From Glycera tridactyla (Eukaryota), in NCBI GenBank assembly GCA_965644265.1, contig OZ286475.1, forward strand, positions 14,756,001 through 14,820,000: 64,000 bases of DNA, given 5' to 3'. The notes under the pieces are model-generated. The model made no database searches, had not been told where the DNA came from, and saw nothing but the letters and a program-made list of their open reading frames with translations. Below are positions 6,903-35,705 of this stretch, one piece after another. Both the position numbers and the translations under genes were made by a program. Within the stretch, counting starts at the first letter, position 1; each line of letters starts with the position of its first letter.

Positions 6903-6957
6903 TGCGCATGCGTGTATTTTCAATTGCATAGTTGCCGGACTTGCCACCAGATGACAG
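6903..6957. promoter_or_regulatory. NRF1-like (TGCGCATGCG) and CTCF-like (TGCCACCAGATGACAG) motifs upstream of the Ig-domain gene
   Basis: Motif matches by eye at 6903-6912 and 6942-6957, about 300 bp upstream of the signal-peptide exon. Function not shown. Confidence 0.35.
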
Positions 6958-10214: not shown

Positions 10215-10560
10215 CCCAGATAGCAATCTGACGTCGGGCCGACGTCAATAGACATAGGCAACGTCGACGGTCATTCCGCGGACGTCGGCAGTATGACGTC
10301 GGTCTCTCGACGTCGGTTTGACGTCGTTTTGACGACTGATGAATACATTTTATATCTGTCTGATATACGACGTCTGGCCGACGTCATACCCAGTAAACAT
10401 TTTACTACTGGGCCTCAACTGACGTCAGATCAACAGCGTGTTGCCAACCAATAATTTTACAAGTAATTGGTCAGATTTCGACGTTGGCCCAACATTGATC
10501 CAACGTTGGCAATTCGACGTCAGAATGCCAACGCCGTAAGGACGTCTGCCTGCCGACGGA
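10215..10560. repeat. Left TIR plus subterminal GACGTC repeat array
   Basis: At least ten GACGTC hexamers plus near matches within ~340 bp. Confidence 0.9.
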
Positions 10561-12261
10561 TGACCCTTAATCAATTTTTCCGTGGGAGGCTGTACAGGCG
10601 TGCCCGTTTGAGTGTGCGCTGTGCATTGCAATCAACCTGCCCATGAACCCTCCACTGAGCTGGTAGATAAATGGTTTAGAAACAATTTTTTTGCAGGGTA
10701 GTCGGTTAGACACTGGCCATGCAATCTCCAGGTCAGCGGTTCAAATCTTCCTATTGCCGATCACCCCCGCGCTCCGGACTCAAGTGCGGGGAGCACGGGA
10801 GCGAGAGGCGAATGACGTACTCCCCGTACTCTGGCGATTCCAGCTGCCTAATATGTTAAAAAGTGAATCTGCTTGTGAAAAAGTGTCTTTATTGAAAACC
10901 AGAATGCCAGCCACTTTATACTGTAGATGTATGCTGAGATATTGATGGTCCAGCGTGGCCTACTTGGTTGGACGCTGGCCATGTGATTGATGGGTCCTGA
11001 GATCGAATCCGCTGCCAGATACAAAACTTTTCACTCAGAAACATCTTGATTTTATCTTTAAATTCATTTTGTAATGGAGATATATCCATTTGGGATATCT
11101 TATTTAATGTTCTGAATGAAAAAAACAACATATCATGTATTTTTTGTCATGAAAATCATTCAGTCGCTCCGGGGAATAGAACCCATACTCTCATGGTAAA
11201 ACACCTTCCCGTGCTCAGCGAGCGGTACATTCACATCAGAGACTAACACCGCCCCGTAATCAATTGCAATTATGACGGGCACGGCATGTGACAGTGATAA
11301 TGTGAGTCATCCCGTTATTTGAATAACCTTATACTGCTCCATATGACTAAAATGGCAACAGTTTCTGGGTGAAAAGCTGTGCTGACTCACTTTTCAACAC
11401 TTCAAGTTGCAAAATTATAAATCTTAGATAAATCAAGATGTTTCTGAATGAAAAGTTATTTTCACTTTAGCTGATTTGAACCAGCGACCTGTGCATTACT
11501 TTGCCAGCGCCTAACCAACTAGGCCACGCTGGAACACCCTAGTCCAACTTATGATAGGCCACCAAGATTGTTACACTTGAATAGACTGCCAACTACCAAC
11601 TGGCAGCAATGGGGATAGAAACGCTCGGTGGGGGTTAATCGTCCATAACGCGGGCGGTGAATCGTCCAGAAAAACCGGCGGTGAACTGTCACGGGTGGTG
11701 AATCGTCCTGAGACCATGCCTCTCCAAACCCTAGCGGAGATGGCGGGAACCAGCCAGGCGACCACCTAGCGGGATTCTTTCCCGCGTCACGCGCCAATAG
11801 CCTCACTTATCCAATCGGCAGCTGTGCGTGTGACCGATCGTAGCGCCATCCGAGTCTGCAGCACTGGAGATTAGCCGCGCAGCCGACCGCAGGCGGTTTC
11901 ATTTCGGTAATCAGGGCAACTTTCTCTTTCAAGTTTTGTCAATTCCAGAAGTAGCTGGTCAGTATAATTTTCGTGTGTTCGATCGGGCAGAGTGGGCGTT
12001 TTTTTTTTATTATCGTTGACAATTATTCGCAGGCATATTGTGAAGGTGAATTTGCGATGTTTTCCGTCGGTCTCTTCACTGGGGCGGTCTCGGTGCCAAT
12101 GTTTTCCTTCGGTCTCGTCACTGAGCAGTCTCAGTGCCGCAGCTGAAGTGCGCCTCCGTTGTCTCTGGCATGACTGGGAATGGGACACAAGTTTCAAGTG
12201 ATCTGCTAGGGCCAACGATCTTACGAGGTGTGTTGCAGAATGTCGCCCGAAGTACTTATTA

Positions 12262-13705
12262 CATCTGGGCAGGGATCGAACCCATGTCATCCAGGTTATT
12301 TTCCAAAAGTGACAGTCTTACCCATTGAGCTACCAGTCCATAACACATTCCTTATCCATGAATCTACAGCTGCCTTACCACACAAAATATATATTACATT
12401 AGGTCAAGGTAACAAAATGGCCTCAACCACACAAGAGATTAGAACCAGCATCCCTTGGTATTTTGCTGGGCCGAACAACAGTGATGATGGCCTTAAAAAA
12501 GTGTGTCAGTGGTCAATTGGACATGTGAGTGCCTGATTCTACCTACATTTCAACTGGTTGTTTACTTCCTGGAAAAAATAAATTTGACCTGAGCAGGGTT
12601 CGAACCCATGACTTCCAGGTCATTCTCCAAAAGTGACAGTCTTACCCATTGAGCTACCAGTCCAAAACACATTCCTTATCCATGAATCTACAGCTGCCTT
12701 ATCACACAAAATATATATTACATTAGGTCAAGGTAACAAAATGGCCTCAACCACACAAGAGATTAGAACCAGCATCCCTTGGTATTTTGCTGGGCCGAAC
12801 AACAGTGATGATGGCCTTAAAAAAGTGTGTCAGTGGTCAATTGGACATGTGAGTGCCTGATTCTACCTACATTTCAACTGGTTGTTTACTTTCTGGAAAA
12901 AAATACATTTAACCTGAGCAGGGTTCGAACCCATGACTTGCAGGTCATTCTCCAAAAGTGACTGTCTTACCCATTGAGCTACCAGTCCAAAGGGTACTAA
13001 GCAACTGCAAATCTGAACCTGCTTGACCACACATGATACATTATCCATCAGTTAAGGTAACAAAATTGCCTCAACCACACAAGAGATTGAAAACAGCATT
13101 CTTCGGTATTTTGCTGGGTCAACAACAGTGATGATTGCCTTAAAAAAGTGTGTCAATGGTCAATTGGGCATGTGAGTGCCTGATTCTACCTACATTTCAA
13201 CTGGTTGTTGAATTTTTTGGAAAAAAAATGCATCAGACCTGAGCAGGGTTCGAACCCATGACTTCCAGGTCATTCTCCAAAAGTGACAGTCTTACCCATT
13301 GAGCTACCAGTCCAAAACACATTCCTTATCCATGAATCTACAGCTGCCTTACCACACAAAATATATATTACATTAGGTCAAGGTAACAAAATGGCCTCAA
13401 CCACACAAGAGATTAGAACCAGCATCCCTTGGTATTTTGCTGGGCCGAACAACAGTGATGATGGCCTTAAAAAAGTGTGTCAGTGGTCAATTGGACATGT
13501 AAGTGCCTGGTTCTACCTACATTTCAACTGGTTGTTTACTTCCTGGAAAAAATACATTTGACCTGAGCAGGGTTTGAACCCATGACTTCCAGGTCATTCT
13601 CCAAAAGTGACAGTCTTACCCATTGAGCTACCAGTCCAAAGCACATTTCTTGCCCATGAATCTACAGCTGCCTTAACACACAAAATACATATTCCATTAG
13701 GTCAA
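12262..13705 (-). repeat. ~325-bp tandem array (5 units), each with a 78-nt tRNA-like Pol III unit
   Basis: tRNA-like segments at 12262-12339, 12586-12663, 12911-12988, 13236-13313 and 13560-13637 (periods 324, 325, 325, 324). A box TAGCTCAATGG, B box GGTTCGAACCC or variant, and a T6-T8 run 7 nt downstream in units 2-5. Confidence 0.85.
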
Positions 13706-14280
13706 GTCTTCTCAGACCTTTCCCCGAATTTTACTATGCATTATCTTTCAGGAAAAGTACTCTTCGTCGCTATGGGTTTCCAGAAAACCAATAGCAACTG
13801 AGTACACTACCTATTCTGATATTAAGTGGTCCCATACTTTTATGAAATGGAACCATGGACATAAATATAAGTACATGTAGTATTGAAAAATAGTGATAGC
13901 TGGGAGCCAGTTGATTAATAAATTCATTGAGTTTGTAGCCATAGTAACTTATGTCACGAGATTAAAGCACTGGATGAAGATGAGATGTCATCTTTGACTG
14001 AGCCATCAAGCATACCTAGTAAGATTGAAAAGTGAAAATCTTGCACTGCGATTTCTCAGTCCCAAGTTTCACCAAAGATCTGCCTATGATAATTCAAAGC
14101 AAGCAGATGAACTGCAGAGGATGCCTCCCAATTGTATGGAATTACAGAGATGCCAACCATTACGATTTTGGCCTAATGATTACGATTTTCACCCCAATAT
14201 TACGCCATTACGATCTTGTAGTCAATTATTACGCTTTTTGGAGGTGACTGGTACTGCACGCTGCTACAGTCCATTCCATA

Positions 14281-14455
14281 CAGTGAAATCTGCGATGAGA
14301 GACCACCTCAATTATCAATTAAAAGTGGTCTCTCAAAAAAGGTGGTCTTTGGTCTAAGGTATATTTGACTATGTCAAACAAGAGCTGCCCTAAAAACGTG
14401 GTCTACCGCAGGAGGCAGTCTCTCAACAGCAGGTCTTTCATTGCAGGTTTCACTG
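14281..14455. mobile_element. Tc1/pogo-type MITE (TA TSD) nested in the giant element
   Basis: TA|CAGTGAAATCTGC...GCAGGTTTCACTG|TA. Confidence 0.8.
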
Positions 14456-15177
14456 TATCTGAAATCAGGTTGATGAGGACTGAGAGTTCAATGGTTGCCA
14501 GTCATGATGTTGGATCAACGGACGAACTGCACAATGCATCCATGCCATTAAATCTCAAATCGGGCGACATAGACACTGATAGACATGATATTTGATATTC
14601 TGAACCCAAATGATGAGAGAGGTTAGCATGGCTTAGCTGGCAAAGTGTTGGCCGTGCAATCCATAGATCCCCGGTTCAAAGCTGCAAATGCCGCAAAAAA
14701 TAATTCATTTGGAATCAATTTAATTTTTTATGTAATTTATCATTCTACCACCTAAAATGTTGCAAAAAGTGAATCAGAATGTGAAACAATGTCATTAGTA
14801 AAAGAAGAGGAACTTTGAATATTTTGACAGTAATTTCGACAGTATCACACACTTCACTTATTAATGATGACTAAATCGTCATTTGATGAGGATAAAATGA
14901 AACAACTTTTTACCTGTGACCATTCTGAACAGTTTCAACGTGAAAAGTTATGAGTTCATTAGCAGATTCGAACCGGCGACCTGTGGTTTACCTGACCAGC
15001 ATCTAACCAACATGGCCATGTAGGTTACATATTCCATGTTCATGAACATGGTCTGAATAATATTGTCACCCTACACCGGACCATGTGCGTGCATGTAAAG
15101 GTGCGATCACCTAACACCCGGACGGTCGTTCGCTCATCACGACGAGCAGCGCCCTCTGAGTGCGATATGTATTCCAA

Positions 15178-15960
15178 AAGTGACAGGCTAACAATGTGTC
15201 AATGGTCAATTGGACATGTGAGTGTCTGATTCTACCTACATTTCAACTGGTTGTTGAATTTCTGAAAAAAAAATACATCAGACCTTAGCAGGGTTTGAAC
15301 CCATGACTTCCAGGTCATTCTCCAAAAATAACAGGCTAACCCATTGAACTACCAGTCCAAATCATATTCCGTGTCTCCAAATCTGAACTTGCTTCACCAA
15401 ACATGATACATGATCCATTAGTCAAGGTAACAAAATGGTCTCAACAATGGTCTCAACCACACAAGAGTTTGGAACCAACACCCCCCGCATATCGCTGGGT
15501 CAACAACAGTGATGATGGCCTTGAAAATGTGTGTCAATGGTGAATTGGACATGTGAGTGTCTGATTCTACCTACATTTCAATCGGTTGTTGAATTTCTGG
15601 AGAAAAATAATACATCAGACCTGAGCAGGGTTCGAACCCATGACTTTCAGGTCAGTCTCCAAAAGGGACAGGCTAACCCATTGAGCTACCATTCCAAAGC
15701 ATATACTGGGTCTCCAAATCTGAACCTGCTTCACCAAACAAGATACATGATCCATTAGTCAAGGTAACAAAATGGTCTCAACCAAACAAGAGATTGGAAC
15801 CAGCATCCCCCGGCATATTGCTGGGTCAACAACAGTGCTGATGGCCTTCAAAATGTGTGTAAATGGTCAATTGGACACTTGAGTGACAGGCTAACCCATT
15901 GAGCTAGCAGTCCAAAGCCTATTCTATGTCTCCAAATCTGAACTTGCTGGGTCAACAACA
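15178..15960 (-). repeat. More diverged continuation of the ~325-bp tRNA-like array
   Basis: Full 78-nt units at 15281-15358 (T9 run) and 15618-15695 (T5 run), and a truncated unit at ~15885-15912. Confidence 0.8.
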
Positions 15961-16073
15961 GTGTTGATGGCCTTAATTATGTGTTTCAATGGTCAAATGT
16001 GAGTGTCTGATTCTACCTACATTCCAATGCTCAATCCGCTAGGCCTCACATGCTAATTGTCTTTTATTTCTAG

Positions 16074-16540
16074 GACTGTTCATCTGACCATTGACACGAC
16101 TCAGTGGCCAGTCTGGCCTAGTTCGTTGGATGCTGGACGCTGAACTCTCAGGCTCCCAGTTCCACTCTGCCGAAAGCAGTGAGTGAATTTTTGTCGTTTT
16201 TTGGGTAGATAAACTGTTCGGAATTGCATTTTTTAACAAGATATCAAAGCATTATTGATAACTCACTCATACAAATACATATATTGATTAATAACAAGGA
16301 TGTGATACTTGCATTAATTATGAATTAACTTTGTTTTGCACCAGCATTACTTGATCACTAGCAATCTTAGTGTTAGATGGCTAGTGCGTAACCCACTGGG
16401 CAATGCATGCTAATAGATTTTTATTTCTAGGACTGTTTATCTGACCATTAACGGACAACGAGTCAGTGGCCAGTGTGGCCTCCTAGGTTGGATGCTGGAC
16501 GCTCACCCCTCAGATTCACAGTGCCACTCTTCCGAAAGCA
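16074..16540 (+). other. Two tandemly duplicated putative non-coding exons (16074-16178 and 16431-16540)
   Basis: Both have acceptor ttttatttctag|GACTGT and donor GAAAGCA|GTGAGT. Lengths are 105 and 110 nt, and copy 1 has stops in all three frames. Confidence 0.5.
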
Positions 16541-16796
16541 GTGAGTAAATATTCGTCATTTCTTTGTCATCAGCTTGCACGGATTTCATGTGTATTCAAC
16601 AAAAACAGTTTGAGTTCAAGTTGTCTGCCCAAACTTCCTCCCAAATGTCTGTAATTCATCATTATACTGTCTAACATAATGCAAAAATGTGTGTCACTAG
16701 AAAGAAAATGCCTAAATTGAAGAAATGGTGTTTGTAAGAGAATTGCCATTTCAACTATAAAATTATGATTTGATGGGGATAACGTGAGATGTTGTG

Positions 16797-17012
16797 CAGG
16801 GATTGTTTTACACTGTGCCCTGTGCTAAATGGAACATAAAGTTATGGAAGGGCACATTAAATTGCATATATTGTGCCAAGAAGGCACATATGATCATTCA
16901 TACTTTGATATAATTACAAGATCTGAGGCGCACACGAATCCGAAATGACACATGGAATTTGCATCAATGTGCCTGAAAGACCCATACATATTCCCAAGTA
17001 AGAAAATCCCTG
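16797..17012 (+). mobile_element. Third copy of the CAGGGA MITE family
   Basis: CAGGGAT...ATCCCTG termini and similarity to 23-238 and 1244-1455. TSD not recognisable. Confidence 0.65.
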
Positions 17013-17824
17013 GCTTGTTGAAGTAGTCGTGTCACAGCCAGGACTGCTTTCCACAAACGGAACAAGGAATACATGCAGTATACGATGAATCTGATGACTT
17101 GTATACAAGAATCCAAGTTGATTTGATAAAATAGTTTAAACAATGAAAGATCAGCCGACTTCTCCTCTCACACAACGCGACATGTATGGAGAAAGCCTGT
17201 TGAGGCTAAACATAGTGTATGAAATATAATTCTGACCAAGTTAATGCAAAAATAGATTCGTCAAACTCGCCCTGTCTGAGCAGCTGAGCAATGTTAAATC
17301 CAGGAAACTTCCACTGCAAATGGAAGTTCGGCACAAGGGAGCCTCCATGTTTGCTTGTCAGCCCTTTTTTGAGACAGAGCCAAGCCAAGTCGATCATTGC
17401 ATTTGAGGGAGATGTAGAAGAGACGATCTACGTGAATGCTTTCATGGGGCAAACGGATGAACAGAGGCTATCGGGATATTCGCACTGAGTTTGAAATTGC
17501 ATTTTTACTCCACTGTCATATGATCTTGCTTTTATCACATGGATTAGTGGATAAGTTATCACATGCAGTACTAAACATCTGATACTGTGCTGAAAATGTC
17601 ACCTCAACAGATACCACAGAATGCACTTACATGGATAACAGTGAGTCCATAAGTGTCCATAAAAATGTAACTGTGCACCAAATAATATAATCAACTGGTT
17701 ATGATTAACAAAAGTGCAACCTACCACATTTCTCTGGAAATGAACACTGGTAATATGTTATTACTGGATTTTTTTTAAGGTGGAAGCTATCCAATAAGTA
17801 AAGATGAGTCAGATGTGAATCAGG

Positions 17825-19861
17825 ATGGCAGGAATTGATGAGATAGGAAAAATATACTGCAGAAGAACTTTGAAGAGGCATGCAAACAAACGAGTTGAGT
17901 GCCTCCTGTCCAGAGGTGAGGACGATAACGTTGCAGGTACCTCTGAGACTTCACCAAAAGTTCTTGAACTGCCTGAAGAAGATCACACAGAGATTGTAAA
18001 TCACATGTCAGAATTGCATTGTGAGGATGAGTATGGCGCTCAAGTGCAAGCTGAACTTATTTCTCTAGATCTTGACGCCACTTCAAATTCTTAGTCGGAC
18101 TGTGATGTGCTCAGTGATTCGGATTGTGATGACAAGGCAGAAGATACGATATATAAGGACCTGAAAGAGTGGGCTGCTGACAATGACATTCGGCATTCCC
18201 ATCTGAATTCCCTCCTAAGAATTCTGAAACCGTTCTTTCCCTCTTTGCCACTAGATGCACGTACATTACTGGGAACACCAACAACCTACCAGGTCCAACA
18301 GATTGGTGGTGGAGCGTACCATCACTTTGGTGTAGCTAATAACGTTATTCATAGGGTGGAGGCATTACGAAAAATACATGAGACTGATACTCTGACATTA
18401 CAGGTCAATGTGGATGGCTTACCACTGTTCAAAAGTACCAATGAACAATTTTGGCCAATACTTGGTTGTCTACTTGAAGACCCCTCCAAACAACCATTTA
18501 TCATTGGCCTATTTCTTGGCACAAAGAAACAGATTGATGCGAATGAATACCTTCGTCAGTTTGTCGATGAGATGATGCTGTTAGAAGAACAGGGGATTGA
18601 TATAAATGAAAAACATTACATTCTCAAAATTGGCAATTTTGTTTGTGATGCACCAGCCCGTGCTTTCATTAAGCGAATCAAAGGTCACACTGGATATCAT
18701 GGATGTGAGAAATGCACGCAAAGTGGTGAGTGGGTTAACAACCGAATGACATTCCCAGATATGAATGCTCCCAAAAGAACCAATATCGCCTTCGATGACA
18801 TGGACATTGAAGAGCATCACCATGGCCCTTCCTCTCTCTCACAGCTAGGAGTTGGCTTAGTAACTGGTTTCCCTCTAGATTATATGCACTTAGTTTGCTT
18901 GGGTGTTATGAGAAAGTTGCTAAATCTCTAGCTCAAAGGACCTCTATGTGTTTGTTTAGGTAGCCGACTTGTTGGATTGATTTCAGATCAGCTGAATCTT
19001 TTCAAAAGTTACCTTCCACATGATTTTTCACGGAGAGGGAGGTCTCTATTGGAGTTGGACCGATGGAAAGCAACCGAGCTGAGAACATTCCTACTTTACT
19101 CAGGACCAGTGGCTTTGAAAGGAAATGTTTCTGATGCTGTTTATGGCAATTTCCTGATGCTCCATGTTGCAATAAGTATACTAGTGCAGGGCGAGTTTTG
19201 TGAACTCTACCTCGACTACGCTCGGCAACTTCTGACTCTATTTGTCCAAAATTTTGCAGATATCTATGGTCATGATATGCTCGTTTATAATGTGCACACT
19301 TTAATTCACTTACCTGATGATGTCTTGCGTTTTGGACCATTACAAAATTTCTCCTGCTTCCACTTCGAAACATATTTGCACATGATAAAGAAGTTGATAA
19401 GGAAACCAAGGTACCCTATGCAACAAGTCATCAGGCGAGTTGATGAAAAGAAGTTTCTTGAAGCCAAATTGAGAGAGAAAGAAACAATGCTGAAAAAAAA
19501 ACATCATGCAGGTCCTTTGCCGAATAACTTCCCACACTGCATCCAGTATAGTGAGGTGAACCTAGAGAGTTACATGTTGTCAATCTCACAACCAGACAAT
19601 GCAGTACTAAGTAATGGAGAGGTATACCTCATACGCAATATTGTCATGCTTGGTGACTTAGTTCAACTTGTGTGCAGCCAGTTTCAATTCAAGGAATCTT
19701 TCTATCAATACCCATTGGATTCTTCAAATCTGAGAACTTACTTTGTCAGACACCTAGATCGCCACCTATGTACTATCAACATTGGCGATGTCACTGGCAA
19801 GATGGTTCTTCTTCCTCTGAGAGATGGATTAGTTTCAATTCCATTAAATCACACATTGTGA
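17825..19861 (+). pseudogene. CMC/EnSpm-type transposase, single 679-codon frame broken by two in-frame TAG stops
   Basis: ORFs 17825-18094, 18107-18931 and 18977-19861 share one frame, with stops at 18092-94 and 18929-31 (LLNL*LKGP, probably TGG>TAG). Motifs VNVDGLPLFKS, QFWPILG, CDAPARAFIK, GHTGYHGCEKC, PLDYMHLVCLG, RWKATELRTFLLY, YNVHTLIHL. Confidence 0.9.
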
Positions 19862-20229
19862 AAAATTTGATTGCCAAGAGTCACTCTGGACAAGGTGTGG
19901 TGTGCAGAAATCCGCTGCAGTGCATATTGTCAGGTTTTCCGTATGATTGATTTTTGAAAGAGTTACTTTTGTGTAAGACCTCTCTGTAATTACTGATACT
20001 TATCCAAGCTTTGCTCTCAAAACTGTATTTGGCCAAAGAAATGCATAAGAAGCAGTTCCCCCACAAATTCTATGATATGTGCTTTTCCCTCCATTTCTCA
20101 TTGAAACGAGTGTCATGGCAGGCTCTAACCAGGGACTAGCAACCTGTATGCGTAGTGATGTAGTCTCTGCCCCCTGAGGTAGGCACTGCCCCTGTCCTAC
20201 AACTGCACATTGCTGATCCCAAGATTGAC

Positions 20230-20492
20230 TCTGCCAGAGCCATTAGTCTGAACCCACAAAGCTGATATATCTGTAATCAAATTCCCAGTGCGTGGCGACT
20301 GGGATATCAAAGGCTGGCCATGTTCATAGGAGTCTCTTCCTATATGCACGTAAAAGAACCACCGCTGTCTTTTGCAAAGAGTAGGTACGGCCCCTGGCAT
20401 GCGGTGACTCTTTTCTTCAGTATTTTCAGTTTTTTTTAGTCCGATATAACCCAAGCGGGTTTAAGCGGCGCTGAACTCAAACAAACAAACCC
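20230..20492 (+). mobile_element. SINE-like 3' fragment
   Basis: Contains GCACGTAAAAGAACC and ends GGCGCTGAACTC(AAAC)n, resembling invertebrate SINE bodies and tails. Family not assigned. Confidence 0.4.
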
Positions 20493-21519
20493 ACTCACCA
20501 CTTATCTGCTGCATCAAATACTTCTCTGCTAGGTATCAGAAGTACATTGGCAAAACACATGCAATACAGTATGCCACAAGTGCCTTGTGCTTGTCAACCA
20601 AGAGTAAAACAATGAAAATCATAATTTAATTCTTGCGAGCATTACCACTGTGTTTGATATGTTGCAGATACTTTGTAATTCCGTATGTCTTTGTGATGAC
20701 CCTATTGAAAATAGCGGCCAACAGCAACACCAAATGCAAGGCGACCTCTTGCGGATCTCCAACTCATTAAAACAGTCAGAGAACAAACAGAGTGTTGCGG
20801 CCAGCAGACGCAGTACCAACTCAATAAATTTTCCGGTGTTGAAACCCACAACTCCTTCAGCCTGCTATCTGATCTCCCTACTCAAGTGCAGAAAGTGGAC
20901 CTAAAACCTCGACATTTCTTTTTTTTCCCACCGAATAAGCATGGCGAGTCTAAATCACATATCGAAAATCACCAGAGATCAAACCTTTCGTGCTGCCACG
21001 ACAGTAAGTACGGCTGCATTGTCACCTGTATATTGTGAATACCTTTACTGTCAATATGTCATTTCAAGCGCAGATCTATTGGCTGTGCAATAATATACCC
21101 ACCGGATTGTCCATATATTCATAGATAGCATTTGCACTATTATGATTAAAAACTCAACCTTGTGATGTATCGCCTGACAACCTCACCATACCGTGACAGA
21201 CCTATCCCGATGATTTTTTGTTTGTAATGCGCACCTACCAGATTAGTCACAAATCAATAGTTAACATGACGACCACTGATATCCAAATTCACTCCGTCAC
21301 TAACTGTATACTCATGTTAACCAACATAGACCGTTGAGCTCACATATTCCACCGCACATAGTGCCACATCTTGCACAAGTATATGTTGCCTGTCTCTATC
21401 CTGCATACGTCCAAATACATTTGTTGCAGAATGTTGGTGTGTGCACAAAGGACGATGCTAAGGGACGCCTTGTTGATTGTCCAATTGCCAGACGCGGTGT
21501 ACAACTTGGAAAGGTTGGC

Positions 21520-22374
21520 ATGCCATATGTCATGTATATTGGTGACAGTTATGTCCGGCGCCTAGGTGATTTTGCCACCAACAAATCAACTGGCTCGAAA
21601 TACAAGTACATTTTGTCAAAGTTCTACTTCATGGGGATTGGAGGGTCCAAGTTCACAAATTTATTGCGGTCAATTCATGGTGATATGTCAGCAGACAAAC
21701 TTGCCATCTATGGAAATAGTTGGGACACATTTGTGGAATCAAAGTTCCGTCCATCGTTCGTCGTCATCACCTGTGGATCCAATGATGTCTCATCGTATAA
21801 TGAAAACATCAAGCCCCTGAAACGACGTCATCAGCACCCAGGTCATATACAAAATGTACTTCATGCAAAACGAAATAATTTCATGGAACACACAATCCCG
21901 TATATTGATGGGCTCATTATGTTTCTGCAGGAGAAATTTCCTAACATTGAGGTATTTTTCACCCCGATCTTCATTAGACCAGATTGGTACCCAGAGTCTA
22001 TCATTCTTGCCAAACGGCTGGATAAGTATGTTTTGAACACCATCAAACAAATCAGCACTTATAACATTCACTGTCTGACTATCAGACGAATCATGAAGAT
22101 TATACCCAAGCCCGCAAAACATAATCGATCGGTGTCCAAGTACTGCTCTGGTCATATTCATCCCGGTGCGCTCCACTATGACAGAGTGCACCTCAGCTAT
22201 GTGGGAAACTGTCTATTCTGTTATGACTTATGCGGCTCTCTACTTGATAAGTGGGTGGATCTCTTTGGTGAAAAGAGAAATGAGATGAGGCAAGGAAAAA
22301 ATAAGAAAAAGAGGAGAGTATACACACGTAAGACCAAAGAGCAGAAAGCAGCAGAGCACTTGTCCAGAACCTAA
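21520..22374 (+). CDS. Intronless SGNH/GDSL-family hydrolase (284 aa from ATG 21520; frame open from 21334)
   Basis: All four blocks present: YIGDSY (catalytic Ser), GIGG, CGSND, DRVH (Asp-x-x-His). Basic C-terminal tail RQGKNKKKRR. No stops or frameshifts. Confidence 0.85.
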   Translation: MPYVMYIGDSYVRRLGDFATNKSTGSKYKYILSKFYFMGIGGSKFTNLLRSIHGDMSADKLAIYGNSWDTFVESKFRPSFVVITCGSNDVSSYNENIKPLKRRHQHPGHIQNVLHAKRNNFMEHTIPYIDGLIMFLQEKFPNIEVFFTPIFIRPDWYPESIILAKRLDKYVLNTIKQISTYNIHCLTIRRIMKIIPKPAKHNRSVSKYCSGHIHPGALHYDRVHLSYVGNCLFCYDLCGSLLDKWVDLFGEKRNEMRQGKNKKKRRVYTRKTKEQKAAEHLSRT

Positions 22375-24954: not shown

Positions 24955-25050
24955 CTGAAAAGTGGCACACTGAATGTGGAAATCTTCATCACCAAATTTT
25001 GTCCCAAAATTTTCCAATTGATGTCAAATTTGTCCCATTTATGTTGGTCA

Positions 25051-25205
25051 GGACCTACCTACCTACATACCTCCCAACCTACCTACCTACCTACCTACCT
25101 ACTTACCTACCTGCCTACCTACCTACCTACCTACATTCACACCTACATACCTACCTACCTACATTCACACCTACAAACCTACCTCTATACATACCTACCT
25201 ACCTG
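25051..25205. repeat. (CTAC)n microsatellite
   Basis: Direct observation. Confidence 0.95.
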
Positions 25206-25268
25206 CTTACCATTCATTATACGGTGGCTGCCAAATTGACCTTACATTGGTGTGAACCTGTACAGGAA

Positions 25269-28200
25269 ATGCCATATGCAGTTGTGGAGTTTAAAGATGA
25301 GGATGATGCGGTGGACATGGTGCCAATGTGCTGGCTGCCCAACAACAGCCAGTGCATGTGGCCTCCCTCACATCTCCTTGGACGACTACAGCAGATGAAG
25401 ATGAGAGAGCAGCGGCCAGACGAGACCTGGACGCCCAATCGTGTAGTCATTCTCTGTCAGAGCGGTGAGCCTAATCAGATCATCTGCTGTATAATGATTT
25501 GAATCAACAGCTCATCTCCTAATCTGTATCCACATCATTTTGACAAAATTACTAGATTCATCACATCACACAAATGGGATGTCATTGCTGAATCAAGAGT
25601 CAGCGATAATTGGTTTAGTAAGAGTAATAATTTGAGCATTTGTAACAGCAGCAACAGCAGCAGTAGTGCAGTGTATACCTTCTATTTCGAACCTAGAGTT
25701 CTATTGACTTCATTTCTCAGAAGAGGTACATTTGACTGATTGTATTGGTATGTATGTTTGTTTGTTTGAGTTTAACGTCACTTGAACCCATGTGTCCCAA
25801 GTAAAGGGCATTCCACAATATAGCATCCCTACCACTATGTATGTTTTTTCTTTGAATTGCAGCAACATACGAAGGAGCTAGAAAAAAACTGCGAAAGGCG
25901 ACAGAAACTTCAGACCTCGACACCACAGATGACGATGTCCTTCGAAAAAGAAGGTAGGTAAATCCATGAGGTGTTTTTTGTTACAAACAGGATTTGTATC
26001 AGAACCTCAGTTAGGTCATTGAGATTATGTGCACTGAAATGTATTCACCAATGACTAGTGACTCATGACAAGTGCCAATTATATTCATGGAATGGAAATA
26101 AATGGCTTACATGTTATTCTTTGGTGATTTGGAAGGTCTAAGTGGCCTAGTCTCAAGTCAATCGTGAAAAAACATGTTTTTTGAGAATGTCTCCCATCAT
26201 AATTCAGTCCAAGGAAATACAGAACATGAAAGACCATCGATGCCATCACTAACATGACCACCATTGCCACGGACACTGCCAACACCACCACCGGACCCCT
26301 ACCACCACCATTGGTTGAGAAAGGGTGGAGAATGGTGAGAGATGGGTGGGAGGAAGGGATTGCACGAGGAGGGAGAGGAGGAGGGTTGGAGAAGAGACGG
26401 AGAAGGCTTGGCTGGTCACATATCTAGTTTCACCAAGAAAATAACGATAGCAACTCTGTTTTTAGATATGATATGTCTCTCTCCCCAGCTTCATTTTCTG
26501 TCACAAACTCATTTTTCATGAAGATGACATTTAGACTCCTCTAATTAACAAGGGATGGTGTAGTATTTGTGACAAAGTGTATGGCCCCTATCCCAGACTA
26601 TCACCAGTAGCATTCATGTTTATTTTTCAGACCCACGCAGTATAATACTGTTGAGGAAGAAGAGCCACGTAAGAAACAAAGAAGGGCTACTTCAAAGCCT
26701 TTGCCGCCTCCTCCGGTATTCACAACATCAATCTCAAGTAATGCACCTAGCTTCTCGCAACCTGACTCTGCAAATGCACAAGGTAATTTTCATAATTTCT
26801 GTAAACCTAAACATCACACAAACATACACCAACAGTTACCGGCATGAGGTTTCACATCAAGCTTTGAAGTGCTTAGTGAGAGTGAATGTTACTCACTACA
26901 CCATGATTGCAGGTAAAAGATGGTTTCCTCAATGATTGCGAGAAATGGGAAAGCCAGCAACAAAATTGCGAATATTGTAATGCAAAAATAAGTTACTTGT
27001 CTTTTGTAGTATTCACATTTTAAACAGTGAACTAATAATGATAAGTATAACGTTAGGTCACATATTTCAGTTTCTACTTTGTCGCGAGGTACTTTTCTGT
27101 GTCTGTTCAAAGGCAGCCATGCTTGTAACTGTGTAATTCCTGGTGCGTTGCATGGTATATTAGCCCAGATTTCATCTTTAAATTGCTTCTGTACACATCT
27201 TGATTTCTGACTGAATAAGGGGAAATGCAATGCTGGCCTGCTTGGTAGGCAACTCATCAGCATGTGCTTGGCATTATTGTGAAGAACATGCAATGTACAT
27301 GGTGGTAACATTCAAGGTTCTCACCCCAGGTTTCTTGGCAGAAAAATAATTTTTATAGCATTCTCCAATATTTCTCCCATACTGCCGGGCTGATGACATG
27401 GGATGGGAATATTTGTATCAATAATATCTTTTAATTTCTTTTTCTATATAGATTAGGTATCTCTAGTTGGTTTGGCTGTATATTCTAAATGCTGGCATAT
27501 ATTGGGATGTTAGCTGAATATCATGACAGTGGATTTCCTTTTGCACCATAAATGGTTCATCAATTCTCTTCACAGCAGCTGTTATTAGCAGCTGAATAAT
27601 GTTATCATTTTTCTTTCAATTAAGGTCCTTCACCGAGGACATATGCAAGTGCAGATTCGCCACAGGCTCCCTCAATTGATCTAAGTGGTATGTATTATCG
27701 TGTTCATAATACAAAGAATATGTCAGGACATATGTCATGCTTCCAGACCGAATGAAAGCAATCAAAAATGGAACAGAATATCAAGAATTGAAATGGTTGA
27801 CGAAGCAACGGGAGGTGAACTAATGCCAGATGTCAGATATGAGCTAGATCAATAACAAAAATAATTAGATCCATGGGATGGATAATTGATGTGAATTTCA
27901 TATGAAACACACTATGTTGTGATGTTGACTGTGATCATCAGATCTGTGGGGCATCAGTGCTGATACCTCATCCCTCAGTAATTGACATCTGCCTGAATTA
28001 TAACCACCTTATGTACATGTTACAGAAAGAGATAGGGTCATCTTGCAAGCCCTCGAGGAAATCAAAGGCCAGGTCCGTCAAAACACGCTATTGCTCCAAG
28101 CAATTACCAAGCAGCAGGAGCCACTCAGGGCAAGATCAACTCATGAGCTGTCCTTTCCCATGTCCACCATCGATGACACCACTATTGTGGAGGCTGCGCT

Positions 28201-29911
28201 TCTTGATAGGGGGATAAGAAAGGCACTGGTAAGGTATTGATTCTACTCTGGTGATCAACTTCATTGAAGTACATACTCACATGAGTACCAATGCGTATAG
28301 TAAACTGCTCCAATTGGGTTGATAAAATCTCATTCCTGAAGTTTAGCCACCAGTTTGGCAACCATGCTTGTTTGCTTTTAGCTTGCATGAACAGGAAACT
28401 CTGAGTGCCAGCCAGGTCATTCGAGGAAATAGCAATTGGAAATGGTTTATATGTGCTGAACAACTTTGACTGGCAACTCCTCACTCTATCTCTTGGTTAC
28501 AAGACAAAGTGACCGATTACAAATGATTTTTGTTTTATGACTGTCTTTCTGTCAGTAATATGTCTTGGGTGTTACATGTCTACAATCAACCATCATCCAT
28601 TATTCAGGAGAAGCGAATAGTATGCTGAAAAGGATTTACTTTCAGATGACTGAATTGGCCAGCCTAGGTGGTGTGAACTGTAGTGATTGTGTACAGAGGA
28701 TTATGATCCATGTGATGACAAACGGTTTGGCCTGCCAGTTCAATTGGAAGGGGCGTGGAACCAAGTCAGCATTCACAAAACTGACCCTTGCGAAAGTTGT
28801 TAAAGGTAAAATCTTTTCTCTCCAATGCCCATTTCACAGGTGTCTCAATGTAGCTTGGATGGCGCTCATGAGATGTCATACAGTCAAGCAACAAGCTATG
28901 AATAGAGCTAGGTGAAATCTGTGTTCTTATATCCACGGATAATTTTAGATTTGCTTCTATGACACTTGCTGGTGGCTATACTGATAAAACCATGCTGAAT
29001 GGCAAGCCAACATCAGCATGGGTATGCTTACATGCTTGTCTAATGGGGCCCCAACGAAAGGCACGCTTTACGTTGTGGGTCGTCAACCAATTAAACCCTC
29101 AAGAGTAATTGCAAGGTCCGTCCTTGGATGATGGCTTGGTTGGATGGCGGATCAGTCATTTGGTTGGCTACACACATCACAAGAAGTCAGAAGTATGGAC
29201 TGCAGACATTGTGTATGACGAAGGGAAAGAAGAAGGTCGAGCATCCTAATTTCTGTCCACAAAATTCATAATCTCACTGCACTGCCTGATGATTTAGATG
29301 CAATGTCTCATAATAGGGCGAGGATGAACACATATCTTAACTTAGAACTCATTCATTTCATAGATGCAGCAAGGAAGAATGGATACACTGACGCATTAGT
29401 GGAAGAACGCATCAAACGGTGGCTGAAATATGCCGGAGATTGTGACGGGGGCAGGATGAGGAGGGTGACACCCAGCACTGGTAAGCTATGCATCAATAAT
29501 CATGAAATAATTGTCATATACAGTTGGACCTGCTTGAGAGATAACCCCTCCATAAAGATCATCTGCCTACAACAGCCACCAGGAGCTACAATTTCAAAAG
29601 TATTTTCAGCAGTTGGCCTTTATGAACAGAGTTGACATAGATGGCTGTATCACCACTGTTTCATATACAAATATGTGCCAACAATGCCGGTGGATTCGCC
29701 AAAAAAAACAACAATGAAATGATGGTGCATCCTCTTCAAAAGCATGCAGATTAGCTGAAATCAGGTTCAATGATCACCGGAAGGTCTATATATTCCATTT
29801 GTGCCATTGAAACTGAAATTGGACAAAAAATGGTGAATGATATGCTGTTGGTTTGTTGTAGTGATCCCTCCTCCTGTTGATGAGACGTCAGATGAAGATA
29901 GCTCTAACTGA
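25269..29911 (+). CDS. Intact 8-exon transposon accessory gene, DUF4806-like, 343 aa
   Basis: Exons 25269-25464, 25863-25953, 26631-26782, 27625-27687, 28026-28228, 28646-28805, 29364-29480, 29862-29911. All introns are GT-AG with matching phases (1,2,1,1,0,1,1), giving 1032 nt with no internal stop, and AATAAA lies at 29984. N-terminus YAVVEF...VPMCW...WPP and C-terminus LASLGG...RIM...FNWKG...K..F..L...IKRWLKYAGD.DGGR match my recollection of DUF4806 proteins (needs HMM confirmation). Confidence 0.8.
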
Positions 29912-30434
29912 TACATGGATGCATCGAAGACATGATTGATACACCTGATTGATCGATTGATGAAGAGTTATGTATCATTGTGGAATAAATTTGGGATATG
30001 TAAGAAGATCTTGGTCTTGTTTGATAAACTACTTAGCCAGTTGATACATGTCTCCTCAACACAAACCACCACACCCACCACCTGTCATGCTGCTGTCGTC
30101 AACACCACCACCACCACCACCACCACCACCACCACCCAACTGCCACCACGACTGTCGCTGCCACTACCACCATCACCACCACTATCTATGCCGTCGCCAC
30201 CACACCAACCACCACATACCTAGCTAGCGAGTCCCCGAGGAAATGTTTATACGTATTAGTCAACCCTAGTGATGATTTGACAAAGTATACTCTAGCCCCT
30301 TAGTTCAAGATTTAAATATGGGGCTATTTGAACCACATGTGAAGGTGGGTTAGATTCAGGAAATTTGGCCAGGTTTCGGGAAATAATGTCTTAGTGCACG
30401 TGATTCATGGACGACTGCCAGTAGCTGTTGGTGT

Positions 30435-33400
30435 CCTGCGTGGCCTAGTTGGTTAGACACTGGCTGAGTAATCAGAACGAAGTGGTACGGTGCACGACTA
30501 GTCGGTTGGGAATACATATCACAACAGAGGGCGCTGCTCACCCAACTTTTCGTGCGAGGAGCAGGCCCACGATCACACGGTTGGGCGCCGAACCTTTGAT
30601 GAGGTCGGGTGGTCAGGTGTTATGAGGTCGGGTGTTAGGTGCACGTACGTGGTCGGGTGACAGGTGGAAGGGTGACAATATTGGTCAGACCATGTTCTGC
30701 AACTTTATTTTATTTGTAATCTGTGTGGCCAAGTTGGTTAGATGCTGGCCAGGTAAACCACAGGTCGCCGGTTCAAATCTGCTAATGGACACATAAATTT
30801 TCATCCAGAAACATCTTGATTTTATCTATAATCCATCATTTCACTGCCTAAACTGTTAAAAATGTATGTGTACTTGGTGAATTGATTAATTGAATTCCTA
30901 CTACTCATATTTTACATTTTTTCACATTTTTTTATTCAGGATCATAATCAGAATCATAATTGTTTTGCGATGATTATTTTGTTAACATTTTTGTTTCAGG
31001 TTTGTCTGGAGAATAGATCTTCGAAATTATAATGATGATCATTGGGTTTTGGAGCTCTCTTGATGATAAGATCATCATAAATAAATGGCAAAATGAGAAA
31101 AAAAAATCCAGATGCTAGCAGATTTGAACAGGGGAACCTTAATTTGCCAGGCCAGTGCCGCGGGAAAGGAGGATAATGCGTCTGTATGAAAAATCATCTT
31201 GGTCAGTGGCTGAATTGAACCGCCGACCTATTGCATACATAGCCAGTGCCTAACCAAGTAGGCCACAGGTCTTCTGGGGAACTTAACATCATAATCAACC
31301 ATTAAGATGTTTGAAATAGTTCTGATACCACACAGTGTGTGTAGAATTGAGGGAATGCCAGCCACTTTGATGTGCATACTGCTTCTGTTGATCATGCAAT
31401 AGAAAGAGGGACTGCTGCGCGGGCTACATTAATCATACATCTACTGCTTAGAATTCCATTTTTTGACAAGATATCTAATTGTCCAGGTTTACATGGGAAC
31501 GAGAGGAGATGACACCTGACATCAACTCACTTCACTTTACGACTGACCTCCAGAACATGGTCTGGTTAATATTCATGATGATCAGGTCAGTAAGGCTTGA
31601 TTTCTTGGCCTAGTTGGGTAGACATAGGCCAAGTAATCCGTAGGTCGCCGGTTTAAACCCCCTAATGAATGCATCAATTTTTATTCAGAAACATCTTTAA
31701 TTTATCATTTTGCTGCCTGAAATATCTTTGCGGTGAGTAGTGTCATTGCCTTTCGCCCACCAATCTGCCTTAATCAAGTACGGGGTGGGGGGAAGGTGTT
31801 AATCTTTGATGTGAGTGCATGTCACCTATCACTCCCATGCTCTCCGTAATCGAGTGCGGGTGGTGTTTTCAACGAGATCATTATCATGAACTTGATGTGT
31901 CAGATATTGTCAAACTTTAGCTTCATATATCTGATCCCCATGGATGTTAAGGAGGTCATGTTCTGCAATTGAACAATTTGGATCCTGCATGGCCCAGTTG
32001 GTTGGGCACTGGCCATGTAAGCAAGAGGTCAGCGGTTCAATTCAGGGACTGGCTTGGATAACTTTTCATACAGAAACATTACCTGTGGCCATTCTAAACA
32101 GTTCAAAAGTGAAGAATTAGATATCTTGTTGAAAATTATAAAGAAAAATCGGGATGGCCCATTTCACCACACCATGTGAAAAAATGTCCATTGAAAAACC
32201 AGAATGCCAGCTACTTGACATAATTTTCAGTGATCCTGGCCATTCAATCTTCGGTTGAAGGTTTGATTCCCGCATCAACTTTTCAATAGTCATTTCTCCC
32301 ACATAGTGCCTCACTTTCTGCAATAGAAATAATGCGGGACTTGTTTATTGTGCAATATTTAGATTAGATATCTTGTTGAAAACACTTCCACTCTGTACTC
32401 GAGCACGGGAGCAGTGAGCATGGGAGTGAGAGGCAATGACACTACTCACATCAGAGACATTTCCGGCAGCAAAATGATAAATTATGTATGAAACATAGAT
32501 GTTTCTGAATGAAAATTCATACTTATACTAGGGGATTTGAACCGGCGACCTATAGATTACTCGGCCAGCATCTAACCAACTAGGCTACACGGGACACGGG
32601 CTATTTCATGGTCTAGCCAATATCCATTGTGATCAGGTGTTAGTCAATGTGATCTTTAGGTTGCCGGTTCAAACCTGTTGATTGACAAAAAACTGTTCAT
32701 CCAGGAACATCTTGATTTTATCTAAAACCTATTGTTTTACTGCCTAAAATGCTAAAAAGTGAGTCAACGTGTGAAAAAATATTTTCATTGAAACCTCAGG
32801 AATTCTCCATCACTTTACCAACTTGGCCACGCAGGTCACAGTTGCAGCAAAGTTTCAGAACATGGTCTGGTTGATATTCATATACAAATAGTTTATTTGT
32901 ACCTTACCAACAATACATGACTATATATATGCAATGAAATGCCCGTGAGTAACACAGGCCTGCATGGCTTAGTCGGTTAGTCACTGGCCATCCAGTCATC
33001 AAGTCGGCGGTTCGACTCCCCTACCAGTCACCTAATTTTTTTCATGATGATCCGCCAGATCAGTGTTTCAGCATCTCTCTATTCCCAAAAATGGTGTTTG
33101 TGAGCGAATTGCCATTTTATCTATGACATCATCATTTAATGAGGATAAAATGAATGTTGTGACCTGTTGGCATTCAAAGCAGTTTCAAAGTGAAAAAGTG
33201 ATAGATCTTTGAAGGATTTGAACCGAGTCTTTCAGAATAAAGAGACAGCAGCCCAACCATATAGGCTACATGTTCATCAGGTTTGTTGGGCAAAAACTGA
33301 GTGTAGCTTCAATGGTCTGTGTGCTTCCTCGGGTACAAGCGGTCTCGGAACATTTCTCTCCCATATTTGCCAATAGTTAATATAACAAGATATCGCATTT

Positions 33401-35705
33401 TATCCCCATAAAATGATAATGTCATGGTTAAACATATGTTGAAATATCAGGGAATGGTCTTGTGAATATTGATGTTCAAGAGGAGCATTCCTTCGTGGCC
33501 TAGTTGGTTAAACGCAGGCCAGGTAAACGACGGGTGGCCGGTTCAAAGCTTCAATGATCTGGATATATTTTTGTGGTAAGACGGCCTTGGCCGGATTCCA
33601 CATTCAGGGCAAGTGCTTCGCTGAGATTGCAAAACGGTGGTGTTTGTTTATCTGGAATTGAAAGGGTCCTACCAAGTGAGGGAATGCCAGCATTTTGAAC
33701 TCCATTCAGGGTATGACTGAATAGATGAAAAATATATTGTTCGATTTGGGTGACCGAAATTGGATGTTATTTTACCAATATGCAATGATACAGAGACAAA
33801 GGTGAACAATTTTTGACATTCGTGGGCTGCCATAAGCTGACATGGGATACAGAGAGTGCATGAAACTCTCGACCACTTTACAAATATTCATTCATACAAG
33901 CAAGGTAGACCATCAAATTATCAAATGGCATGCATGTTGTTTGTTTATTGTTAATGCAAATAGAAGCTGGCATAGGATTCACATTTGGGCTATTGACTGA
34001 GATTGTTTATGGAATTTCACTCCAGTAACACCTGGCATATTAAAGGCTTCAGCAGCACTTCCTGTACATGCTTGTGTGTTGGTCAGTGCAGGTGAGTTAG
34101 GTCAGCGTGCTCATTTCAGTATGTACTCAGTGTTCAACTCTGTTCCAGGTTCAGATGCCTTGCGCACATTCCCATAGCTCTGTACTAACTGGGCCTTACT
34201 TCCTATCCCCTATCCCCTATCCCAACTGTGAATGAAACTGACTGTAGGCACACAGTCGGCTGTCACGCCTCCCCCTCCTCAAGCTCACTGGAGCTAGAGG
34301 GGTGGCTGGCAGGCAGGGCGCACCAGTCAGACTAACGCAGGCCACCACCGCCACTGCTGGGCACAACACACGCTGTCCAACACCTGAGCCGGAACAGCAT
34401 CTTGTAAACACAGTACACATGGTCCCACCACATGGACTTCTATTGTACGTTGTATCTCACCCATTTACTGCTGCTTCTTACTGTGTGTGTGTGTGTGTGT
34501 GTGGGTGTGTGTGGGTGTGTGTGGTGTGTGGGTGCGTGTGTATGCCCACCCTCCTACCCATCCACCCACATACACCCTCACCCAGCTAATCACCCACCTA
34601 CCCATCCAACCACCCACCAACCTACCCACCCAACTACCCACCCACCTACCCACCCACCTACCTAACCACCCATCTACCTACCCACCCACCCACCCACCAC
34701 CCACCTACCAACCCACCTACTGACCTACCCACCCACCCACCTACCTGCCCTTCTGCCCATCCACCTACCCAACCACCCACCTATGCACCCACCTACCCAC
34801 TCACTTAACTACCCACCCACCCACCTACCCACCAACCTACCCACCCAGCTACCAAGCTACCCATCCATCGACTTACCCATGCCTACCTACCCAACTACCC
34901 ACCCACTTACCTACCCACCCATCTACCCAACTACCTACCCACCCAACTACCGCCACACCCATCTACCTACCCACCTACCCACCCTCCTACCCACCCACCT
35001 ACCTACCCACCTACCTACCCACCCACCACCCACCTACCCACCTATATATTCACCCACCTATCTACTCACCCACCTACCTACCCACCCACCTACCCACCAA
35101 CCGACACCCACCCACCTACCCACCATCCGACCCACCAACTAACCACCCAACCATCAAGTTCATCCGCTTGCCGCTTACCATTTCAGGCCTACAGGCCTAG
35201 TTACTTGTTTTGTCGTTTAGTTATGATGATCTTATCATCTAGACGGCTTCAAACACAGTGATTAAGTGTAGAAATTTTGTTTTTGAAGAGTCCTGAGATC
35301 ACGATGGTGAACTTATTGTAATGGCCAAACTGGCAAGGTTGCTGCATAGCTACACAAAAAACTGCCGGTTCTAACCCCCAATAGATATAAAAAAAATTCC
35401 ACTCAGAAACTATCTAGAATTCCAATTTTCAATGGAATTCCATATTTCAGGCGTTCCTCTTTTTCACAATGTATGATACATTATGCATGATCAAATACAT
35501 GAAGTCGGTCTATACATGCCATTTGTAATGTTGATATATATCTATGTTTCGTTTTCATATCACTTTTTAACATTTTAGGCAGCAAAATGATGAATTACAG
35601 ATACAATCAAAATTTTTCTGAATGAAAAGTTATAAGTCACGTGGCAGATTTGAACCGGCGACCTATGCATTACACGGCCAGCGTCGATCCAATTAGGCTA
35701 CGAGT
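30435..35705. ncRNA. Right-arm tRNA-Thr-like Pol III modules (about 30437+, 30724+, 31210-, 31605+, 31988+, 32530-, 32962+, 33212-, 33494+, 35643-)
   Basis: Same A-box/B-box consensus and spacing as the left-arm modules. Several share the downstream body CAGAAACATCTTGATTTTATCT. Confidence 0.6.
34480..35200 (+). mobile_element. Repeat carrying a long (CCCA/CCTA)n tract and ending ...CAGGCCTAG|T (Helitron-like)
   Basis: The unique 3' segment CCAACCATCAAGTTCATCC...CAGGCCTAGTT recurs inverted at 53438-53495, and homology stops right after CTAGTT. Left boundary approximate. Confidence 0.45.

Follow-up and report, generated by a model that had tools for sequence, protein, structure and literature searches.

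A 64-kb stretch of Glycera tridactyla DNA (hereafter the window) contains one element of about 26 kb (10215-36177) that holds all copies of a tRNA-like module. By their letters, these modules are predicted type 2 RNA polymerase III (Pol III) promoter units, each comprising an A box, a B box, and a run of Ts, and loading of TFIIIC and Pol III on them is predicted. The element itself fits the TRC branch of the CACTA/EnSpm DNA transposons in its ends, its target site duplication (TSD), and its transposase motifs. The transposon branch and the type of cassette are each known. A literature search, made without Repbase and most subscription journals, returned no report of the two combined, of promoter letters in a DNA transposon that show a signal of selection, or of Pol III-promoter arrays in such an element.

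Conserved boxes and lost fold of the modules

A profile built from 14 seeds, with module coordinates counted from tRNA position 7, recovered 14 full copies whose 85 aligned columns contain no gap. Full copies in the left arm start at +10693 (10693..10747; A and B boxes present, T-run lost), +10955 (10955..11043; a run of four Ts, or T4), -11527 (11439..11527; T4), +14628 (14628..14717; first T-run decayed), and -15019 (14931..15019; T4). Those in the right arm start at +30725 (30725..30813; T4), -31266 (31178..31266; T5), +31605 (31605..31693; T5), +31989 (31989..32078; T4), -32588 (32500..32588; T4), +32964 (32964..33052; T7), -33269 (33181..33269; T5, the most diverged full copy at 58% to the majority, with intact boxes), +33495 (33495..33583; T5), and -35701 (35613..35701; T4). 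The outermost copies both face inward and begin 478 bp (left) and 476 bp (right) from the element ends, and copies extend to 6 kb inward. Three further copies are gap-free though decayed, namely +16113 (16113..16167), -16404 (16350..16404; B box lost), and +16475 (16475..16529). Another five are partial or weak: only the 5' part is present in +30440 (30440..30474) and -32830 (32811..32830), only the 3' part in -31159 (31102..31159; B box and T-run) and +32646 (32646..32804; the longest conserved 3' flank of all), and +35321 (35321..35421; profile E 0.04) has about one additional nucleotide between the boxes.

The initial annotation had described about 15 modules in both arms, and the 14 full copies bear this out, although the total is higher once the three decayed copies, the five partial or weak copies, and seven related heads in a tandem array (see below) are counted. 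The invariant spacing between A and B boxes that it reported holds for the full copies but not for the array heads, which carry 6 nt more. Its tally of triplets at the anticodon position (AGT 4, TGT 4, GGT 3, TGC 2, TCC 1) is exact if -33269 is omitted and the 5'-only copy +30440 is counted; among the full copies, NGT occurs in 10 of 14 rather than 11 of 14, the triplet of -33269 being CTT. Likewise, position 33 is A or G throughout the set used at the time but T in -33269.

Relative to the majority, the 14 copies deviate at 145 of 770 sites (19%), with a pairwise mean of 69%, and the changes are unevenly spread along the module (chi-square P=1e-4). Eleven positions were treated as box letters (T8, G10, A14, G18, G19, G53, T54, T55, C56, A58, and C61), of which G19 and T54 are box letters beyond the published fixed ones. 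The nine fixed letters of the consensus A box TRGYnnAnnnG and B box GWTCRAnnC (PMC4333407) show only 3 changes in 126. All eleven together changed in 4 of 154 instances (2.6%) versus 141 of 616 (23%) elsewhere (Fisher 6e-11), such that the boxes, in the comparison with the rest of the module that had been proposed earlier, are about nine times better kept. A base-matched permutation with CpG columns excluded yielded 0 of 200000, and the same result was obtained with the three decayed copies included (11/187 box versus 164/646 other changes). Seven extra copies, scored separately over the positions they cover, had 7/55 box versus 82/221 other changes.

The unit continues past the B box into a T-run and a conserved 3' flank, which had been overlooked. 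A run of T4-T7, the length of four or more that marks a Pol III unit, starts 18-20 nt past C61 in 12 of the 14 full copies, no T4 is found inside the 14 cores, and T4 runs downstream of modules number 1.6 per 75 nt versus 0.39 in the background. The AT-rich 3' flank that follows is common to 8 copies, has indels, and ends at scattered points. In the cores, 0 indels were found versus 9-11 expected from other repeats in the window (66 gaps/1087 mismatches, a rough figure as the pairs overlap), and most copies have the same length between position 7 and offset 89, in contrast to a trailer that varies at 92 of 216 sites.

The tRNA fold, in contrast, has been lost. Cloverleaf pairing comprises 52.7% of cells versus 53.2% in shuffles, at odds with a functional tRNA gene, and by stem amounts to 39% (acceptor), 47% (anticodon), 60% (T), and 75% (D); the 5-nt stem of the initial annotation, which corresponds to the anticodon stem, is no stem. 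Covariation across the 14 modules was nowhere above shuffles and lay under the shuffled mean, fold z-scores of single copies ranged from -1.8 to +0.7, and RNAalifold returned a single 7-bp helix with an unfavourable covariation term. Neither ARAGORN nor Rfam called a tRNA on the 14 modules, and Rfam identified neither tRNA nor any other real family over 9000-38000; ARAGORN with lowered thresholds produced noise (232 calls in the window). Conservation of the boxes with loss of the fold agrees with the earlier proposal that the modules were kept as promoters rather than as decoding tRNAs.

No profile match at E<1 was detected in the 37 kb of the window outside the element, as had been noted before, and the probability that all 14 full copies fall within the element by uniform placement is 4e-6. 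Within the 64-kb window, the extent of this check, the modules therefore do not behave as a dispersed short interspersed nuclear element (SINE). A degenerate module pattern had 8 matches versus 0.00 in 100 shuffles. A generic A box-B box-T4 pattern, composed after the modules were known, has 17 matches inside the element, none in the 37 kb around it, and 4 in the 461 kb of 80 related transposase loci, which were kept from at least 519 relatives on metagenome contigs; strict B boxes number 24, 4, and 14, respectively. A tRNA-derived SINE head of ordinary appearance is present at 49780-49949 (-), distinct from the module, with a body found again at 20868-20929 and 59065-59116. As a module, the SINE-like head at -49939 was rejected, being a different repeat (profile E 1.1, 2.9).

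The seven related heads belong to a young 325-bp tandem array on the minus strand, with five heads at 12249..13706 and two in a second stretch at 15167..16027. Their T-run lies at about the same distance past the B box as in the modules, and they align to the 14 modules with z of 1.0-5.9 against shuffles; ARAGORN called tRNA-Pro(TGG) for two heads of the first stretch. The 325-bp units are up to 96% alike, and the minus-strand head has TTTT in its loop. On the plus strand, opposite to the head, the array reads GGTAACA followed by AAATGGCCTCAAC, a loosely primer-binding site (PBS)-like start without a polypurine tract (PPT).

Spread, ancestry, and timing

The modules likely multiplied by DNA copying inside the element. 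Copies +10955 and -35701, -15019 and +30725, and +16113 and +16475 have 5' flanks upstream of the predicted start in common, and a mirror block (10900-11071 / 35756-35583, 72% alike) spans +10955 and -35701; shared 5' flanks and mirror blocks argue for copying as DNA. Further blocks recur in the arms in either orientation, and the most similar pair (91%) is the mirror pair -15019/+30725 across the core. The module tree is star-like, with 10 of 11 inner branches open. A short block, GAATGCCAGC, is found at 10900, 31355, 32195, 33680, and 35750, in both arms and upstream of modules of either orientation.

The convergent pairs described by the initial annotation are real insofar as all 6 minus full copies come directly after a plus copy (P ~0.01; strand switching over all 22 copies, P 0.04). 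However, back-to-back pairs are equally frequent, and one proposed pair, 33494/35643, is 2 kb apart. The facing pairs are also not independent, in that the spacer 14875-14975 matches 33128-33225. That these pairs might be MITEs (miniature inverted-repeat transposable elements) with modules as terminal inverted repeats (TIRs) was rejected, as no TSD was seen by eye in the three pairs checked.

A Helenus-like long terminal repeat (LTR) is, as judged from sequence, a good candidate for the ancestor, and a SINE head or a tRNA gene may be the alternative. Some bivalve Helenus families, which belong to the TRIMs (terminal-repeat retrotransposons in miniature), are read as tRNA-Thr, and one has CTGGC and a non-U at position 33 (PMC10886601). 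By eye, the majority head matches the head of Helenus-4_SaGl (bivalve, tRNA-Thr-GGT) in 39 of 54 columns with one gap, with CTGGC and non-U 33 in common, and 10 of 14 full copies have GAAACA-like letters at offset 89-90; a matching upstream motif is present in only 4 of 20 copies. A motif search of the available PMC10886601 supplement found no module-specific flank motifs. Other marks of Helenus are missing: 4-bp TSDs at candidate TG/TA...ACA end pairs number 2 of 363 versus 1.4-1.7 by chance, a PBS after ACA or a PPT upstream accompanies 0 of 24 heads, and neighbouring heads are 49-81% alike, with 5 of 6 same-strand neighbour pairs at only 49-64% where two like LTRs would be expected. Since the boxes are 97% intact, such retrotransposon marks should persist were the copies recent insertions. 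A T-run behind the head is invalid as proof against retroposition by LTR elements, given that Helenus LTRs have one (PMC10886601), whereas T-runs directly past the head, with no read-through body or tail, and shared 5' flanks rule against a tRNA-derived SINE.

Ancestry from tRNA-Thr, as the initial annotation proposed, is plausible given the by-eye likeness to that Helenus head, with an ambiguous anticodon register: read one base further along, 9 of 14 copies have GTA, and a T precedes this triplet in 7 of 14. The 3' half presumably also resembles eukaryotic tRNA-Tyr and -Ile, and blastn against phage tRNAs gave weak matches only, of mixed isotypes (Asn, Glu, Asp, Ile, and Phe).

The element's transposase (17825..19861, +; 678 codons) has in-frame TAG at codons 90 and 369 and zero frameshifts, corresponding to 0.8-2.5% divergence since this copy died, with upper 95% limits of 3-9% depending on the ORFs (open reading frames) and lesion types counted. 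At 19% divergence, about 15 stops and about 15 frameshifts would be seen. Given so few lesions, most module divergence likely predates the death of the element. The loss of box letters (2.6%) lies within the transposase-derived range, whereas the 23% change at non-box letters likely arose earlier, in the mobile lineage, while the boxes were held, as far as one copy can indicate. Divergence that accrued mostly during mobility would in turn imply selection on the boxes, although a box constraint inherited from before capture retains some likelihood.

Possible roles of the conserved boxes

SINEs, Cassandra, Helenus, and Ajax need a Pol III promoter for the RNA by which they move. Because a DNA transposon moves without a Pol III transcript, the boxes here likely serve in cis. 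We tentatively favour an explanation by analogy, which we place just short of probable, in which the cassettes act as TFIIIC/Pol III chromatin barriers, or as open-chromatin elements, around the genes of the element; the insulators flanking the cargo genes suggested in the initial annotation are consistent with this. A single ancestor, be it a tRNA gene or the head of a SINE or of a Helenus-like LTR, would have been captured by the transposon and spread by duplication, inversion, and copying between arms, with turnover in which some copies decayed and the 325-bp variant was recently amplified. The boxes would have been kept by selection while the element was mobile, and TFIIIC with Pol III loading would form barriers against silencing, such that the modules are predicted to bind TFIIIC, to yield transcripts of about 85 nt, and to show barrier activity. 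As barriers formed by tRNA genes (tDNAs) are orientation-independent, facing pairs would need no meaning of their own. In fission yeast, a tDNA heterochromatin barrier requires an intact A box and Pol III and works in either orientation (PMC2040200). The cassettes sit on both sides between CpG-rich ends (observed/expected 1.6-1.7) and the genes. The fuller claim is that a Pol III promoter of retrotransposon or tRNA origin was domesticated by the transposon to work in cis, and that the arrays in both arms, maintained by selection on the transposon itself, shield the 26-kb element and its cargo from host silencing; this is possible, but we hold it with less confidence.

Several observations weigh against these proposals. 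The cassettes are known from one copy of the element only. Across the 80 related loci the module profile had no match under E 0.65, and the apparently near-complete relatives L034/L035 and L042 (~12 kb) lack a strict B box. The list of box letters was made once the alignment was known, and the copies were detected partly via their boxes. Three copies have decayed, with 7 of 33 box letters changed, and the first T-run is lost in 2 of 14 full copies. Some read-through is possible, given that in human cells T4 acts as no more than a minimal terminator (PMC5725217). A barrier also does not explain the fixed spacing of the A box from the B box, nor do promoter needs alone, because Alu and tRNA promoters work at distances of 50 and 35 bp (PMC4333407), a difference of 15 bp. 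Finally, the arms tolerate many nested repeats, and CpG observed/expected in the core is 0.45 and 0.38 versus 0.61 and 0.63 for ORFs outside, a depletion from which it follows that the core was not shielded from methylation-type decay.

The strongest rival, which we nevertheless consider unlikely, is that a Helenus-type TRIM (or SINE) family left the cassettes behind as passengers, useless to the transposon, and that their box conservation was inherited from many mobile masters. Helenus LTRs of the same anatomy, the GAAACA-like end in 10 of 14 copies, the 39/54-column match to the bivalve tRNA-Thr-GGT head, the star-like tree, the other repeats nested in the arms, and the tandem arrays that Helenus forms (PMC10886601) are all consistent with it. 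Passengers of this kind are difficult to reconcile with TSDs at chance (2/363), the lack of PBS or PPT at 24 heads, and neighbour pairs of which 5 of 6 are 49-64% alike, nor would they predict a 3' flank past ACA that is common to 8 copies and breaks off at scattered points, or the absence of a copy in the 37 kb outside the element.

It is more doubtful still that the cassettes are kept for a product, such as fixed-length Pol III RNAs of about 85 nt that would serve as decoys for small-RNA silencing or regulate it. The analogy is with viral VA or tRNA-like RNAs, and the conserved box letters double as contacts of the tRNA elbow. Fixed length next to a trailer that varies at 92/216 sites, retained terminators, and a D-stem paired at 75% would suit such a product. 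However, the modules have no common fold, with covariation under the shuffled mean and fold z of -1.8 to +0.7, and the 325-bp variant has TTTT inside its head.

An improbable alternative holds that TFIIIC sites near both ends help the ends of a long element to meet and thereby aid transposition. tDNAs load cohesin or condensin, or cluster, and both the position of the outermost copies (478/476 bp from the ends) and the length of the element (26 kb versus about 12 kb for two module-free relatives) would agree with this, yet some copies lie as far as 6 kb inward, A boxes and T-runs are kept although the B boxes should be sufficient by themselves, and the length comparison involves two relatives only. 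Self-silencing through double-stranded RNA or hairpins from facing pairs, as the initial annotation had suggested, is very improbable: minus copies do follow plus copies in 6 of 6 cases and Pol II read-through might fold back on arms that are 46-69% alike, but facing copies are no more similar than random plus/minus pairs (61.5% versus 62.2%, P=0.68), the T-run 18-20 nt past each B box predicts transcripts shorter than the gaps of 149-2050 bp, every head gives RNA of the same sense, and the pairs are not independent.

If selection on boxes in a DNA transposon is true, it points to a chromatin or small-RNA role. The favoured barrier reading would then represent a non-protein anti-silencing strategy for DNA transposons (compare the TET cargo of fungal transposons, PMC12730594), and the diverged copies would amount to a mutagenesis experiment done by nature on an animal tDNA insulator, showing which letters and distances are needed.

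The host transposon and known systems

The element is flanked by AG on the left (10213..10214) and right (36178..36179), a 2-bp TSD as in TRC/CACTA elements, with a chance of about 1/16 at this single site. Its left end (10215..10560, +) comprises the 12-bp TIR CCCAGATAGCAA and then 11 subterminal GACGTC repeats, and its right end (35930..36177, -) 13 such repeats and the TIR. The TIR begins with CCC, matches in 12 of 12 bp between the ends, and is short, as is typical of TRC/CACTA. Subterminal repeats and a second gene are further features of TRC/CACTA (EnSpm) elements, and both have counterparts here. Motif I (D-G...W-P), C(2)C, and H(3-4)H were all read in the transposase translation against PMC1636069 and PMC12730594; ends, TSD, and motifs of the TRC branch are described in PMC1636069 and PMC4298943, and C(2)C and H(3-4)H in PMC12730594. 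The element's own transposase matched 0 Pfam families, whereas 41 aligned members included DUF4218 in 35 and Transposase_21 in 1 (E<=0.01), and the top relative, among 2160 in 8000 scored candidates, is 51% identical. No transposase relatives were found in viral contigs. A second set of termini around the coding core was ruled out, as no inverted 10-mer exists.

An ORF and a putative gene lie further downstream. An SGNH/GDSL-like cargo ORF (21304..22374, +; E 2e-6, under the Pfam cut-off) is fully open although the transposase has two stops, and no relative of it is present in the 80 related loci. A putative spliced second gene (25262..29482, +) matches no Pfam family at E<0.05, and its pieces have matches beside the transposase in 5 of the 80 loci.

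In the 80 related loci, where flank coverage is thin (2.9 kb upstream in 10/80, 9 kb downstream in 4/80), generic A/B units numbered 2 versus 1.3 in shuffles, and ARAGORN on 40 of them found 0 genes. An exact-match module pattern had 0 matches in viral and metagenome contigs, an uninformative result as these collections are poor in this host. The near-complete, CCCAG-ended relatives are L034 (~2296-14509), L042 (28-11974), and L017 (from 115); subterminal repeats are ACGT-rich in L034 and L017 and of a different, GC-rich set in L042, and L034/L035 have the subterminal repeat of the Glycera element (72% over 120 bp). On this sampling, the cassettes appear as a lineage-specific gain and no family trait.

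Repeats nested in the element include a MITE-like element with imperfect inverted ends of about 26 bp (CAGTG...CACTG), flanked by TA (14279-14459), and repeats at 16797-17018, 20868-20929, 25780-25800, 29680-29837, and 33600-34470, several of which recur outside. Among the sequencing runs listed, one shared 5% of the sequence words and none was of RNA. Compared at 80% likeness over 25300-34400, contigs of sequencing run X1 cover 29680-29837 with dozens of variants and differ from 33621-34118 at 8 of 498 positions; they leave the bins 30468-32899 and 33204-33507, where most right-arm modules lie, uncovered, a gap that carries no evidential weight. The window is DNA of an animal genome, with ORFs for a long interspersed nuclear element (LINE) reverse transcriptase and CUB-trypsin proteins. 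The former (7398-9700, 751 codons) terminates in short tandem repeats immediately to the left of the element; the latter are two tandem copies of a long uninterrupted ORF (40807-43335 and 46971-48935, -; 842 and 654 codons), whose product has three CUB domains plus one trypsin domain. To the right of the element, a 764-bp non-autonomous element (36896-37659) with CCCAGATAAC ends, its own subterminal repeats, and no module sits in a duplicated block of about 6.2 kb, its second copy ending at 43829; its 10-bp end also starts related loci L060 (181) and L063 (152). A 26-bp minisatellite array of about 40 units occupies 57726-58800.

Described members of the TRC branch, SmTRC1 (PMC1636069) and Hydra Spongebob/EnSpm-4N1_HM (PMC4298943), share with the Glycera element the CCC(AG) termini, 2-bp TSD, motif I, C(2)C, H(3-4)H, and a spliced second gene. 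They differ in size, at 5-9 kb as published versus 26 kb (the relatives L034/L042 measure about 12 kb), and the SGNH cargo and predicted Pol III cassettes occur in the Glycera element only; 'tRNA' appears 0 times in the available text of PMC1636069. The available text of a clam MITE study (PMC3879986) reports no complete boxes.

The fission-yeast cen1 tDNA barrier (PMC2040200) is an orientation-independent unit of A box, B box, and Pol III, placed in inverted repeats around a domain, as is proposed for the cassettes; it comprises host tRNA genes that still decode, and its barrier function was shown experimentally where ours is proposed. SINE-derived satellites (PMC10702118) resemble the 325-bp array in that a Pol III-type repeat expanded as a DNA tandem array, but they lie outside DNA transposons, and the available text makes no claim of selection at the level of boxes. 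According to a review of rDNA pieces in transposable elements (PMC10946416), Pol III promoters are retained by SINEs and TRIMs. Among the latter, Cassandra and Ajax (PMC10946416, PMC10886601) captured a Pol III promoter with its terminator and keep both under selection with loss of the RNA fold, as is likely for the modules; they are, however, retrotransposons with a type 1 (5S) promoter, one per LTR.

The closest likeness is to Helenus (TRIMp3; Kojima 2024, PMC10886601), whose tRNA-like head is non-functional but keeps its boxes and is followed by a T-run, 16-19 nt past the B box, and a short ACA end. Helenus is an LTR retrotransposon of 311-1263 bp with two like LTRs, PBS, PPT, and a 4-bp TSD, and needs its promoter for its genome RNA, whereas the Glycera element is a DNA transposon that carries more than 20 heads in both orientations, these heads lacking PBS, PPT, and such a TSD, and needs no RNA intermediate.

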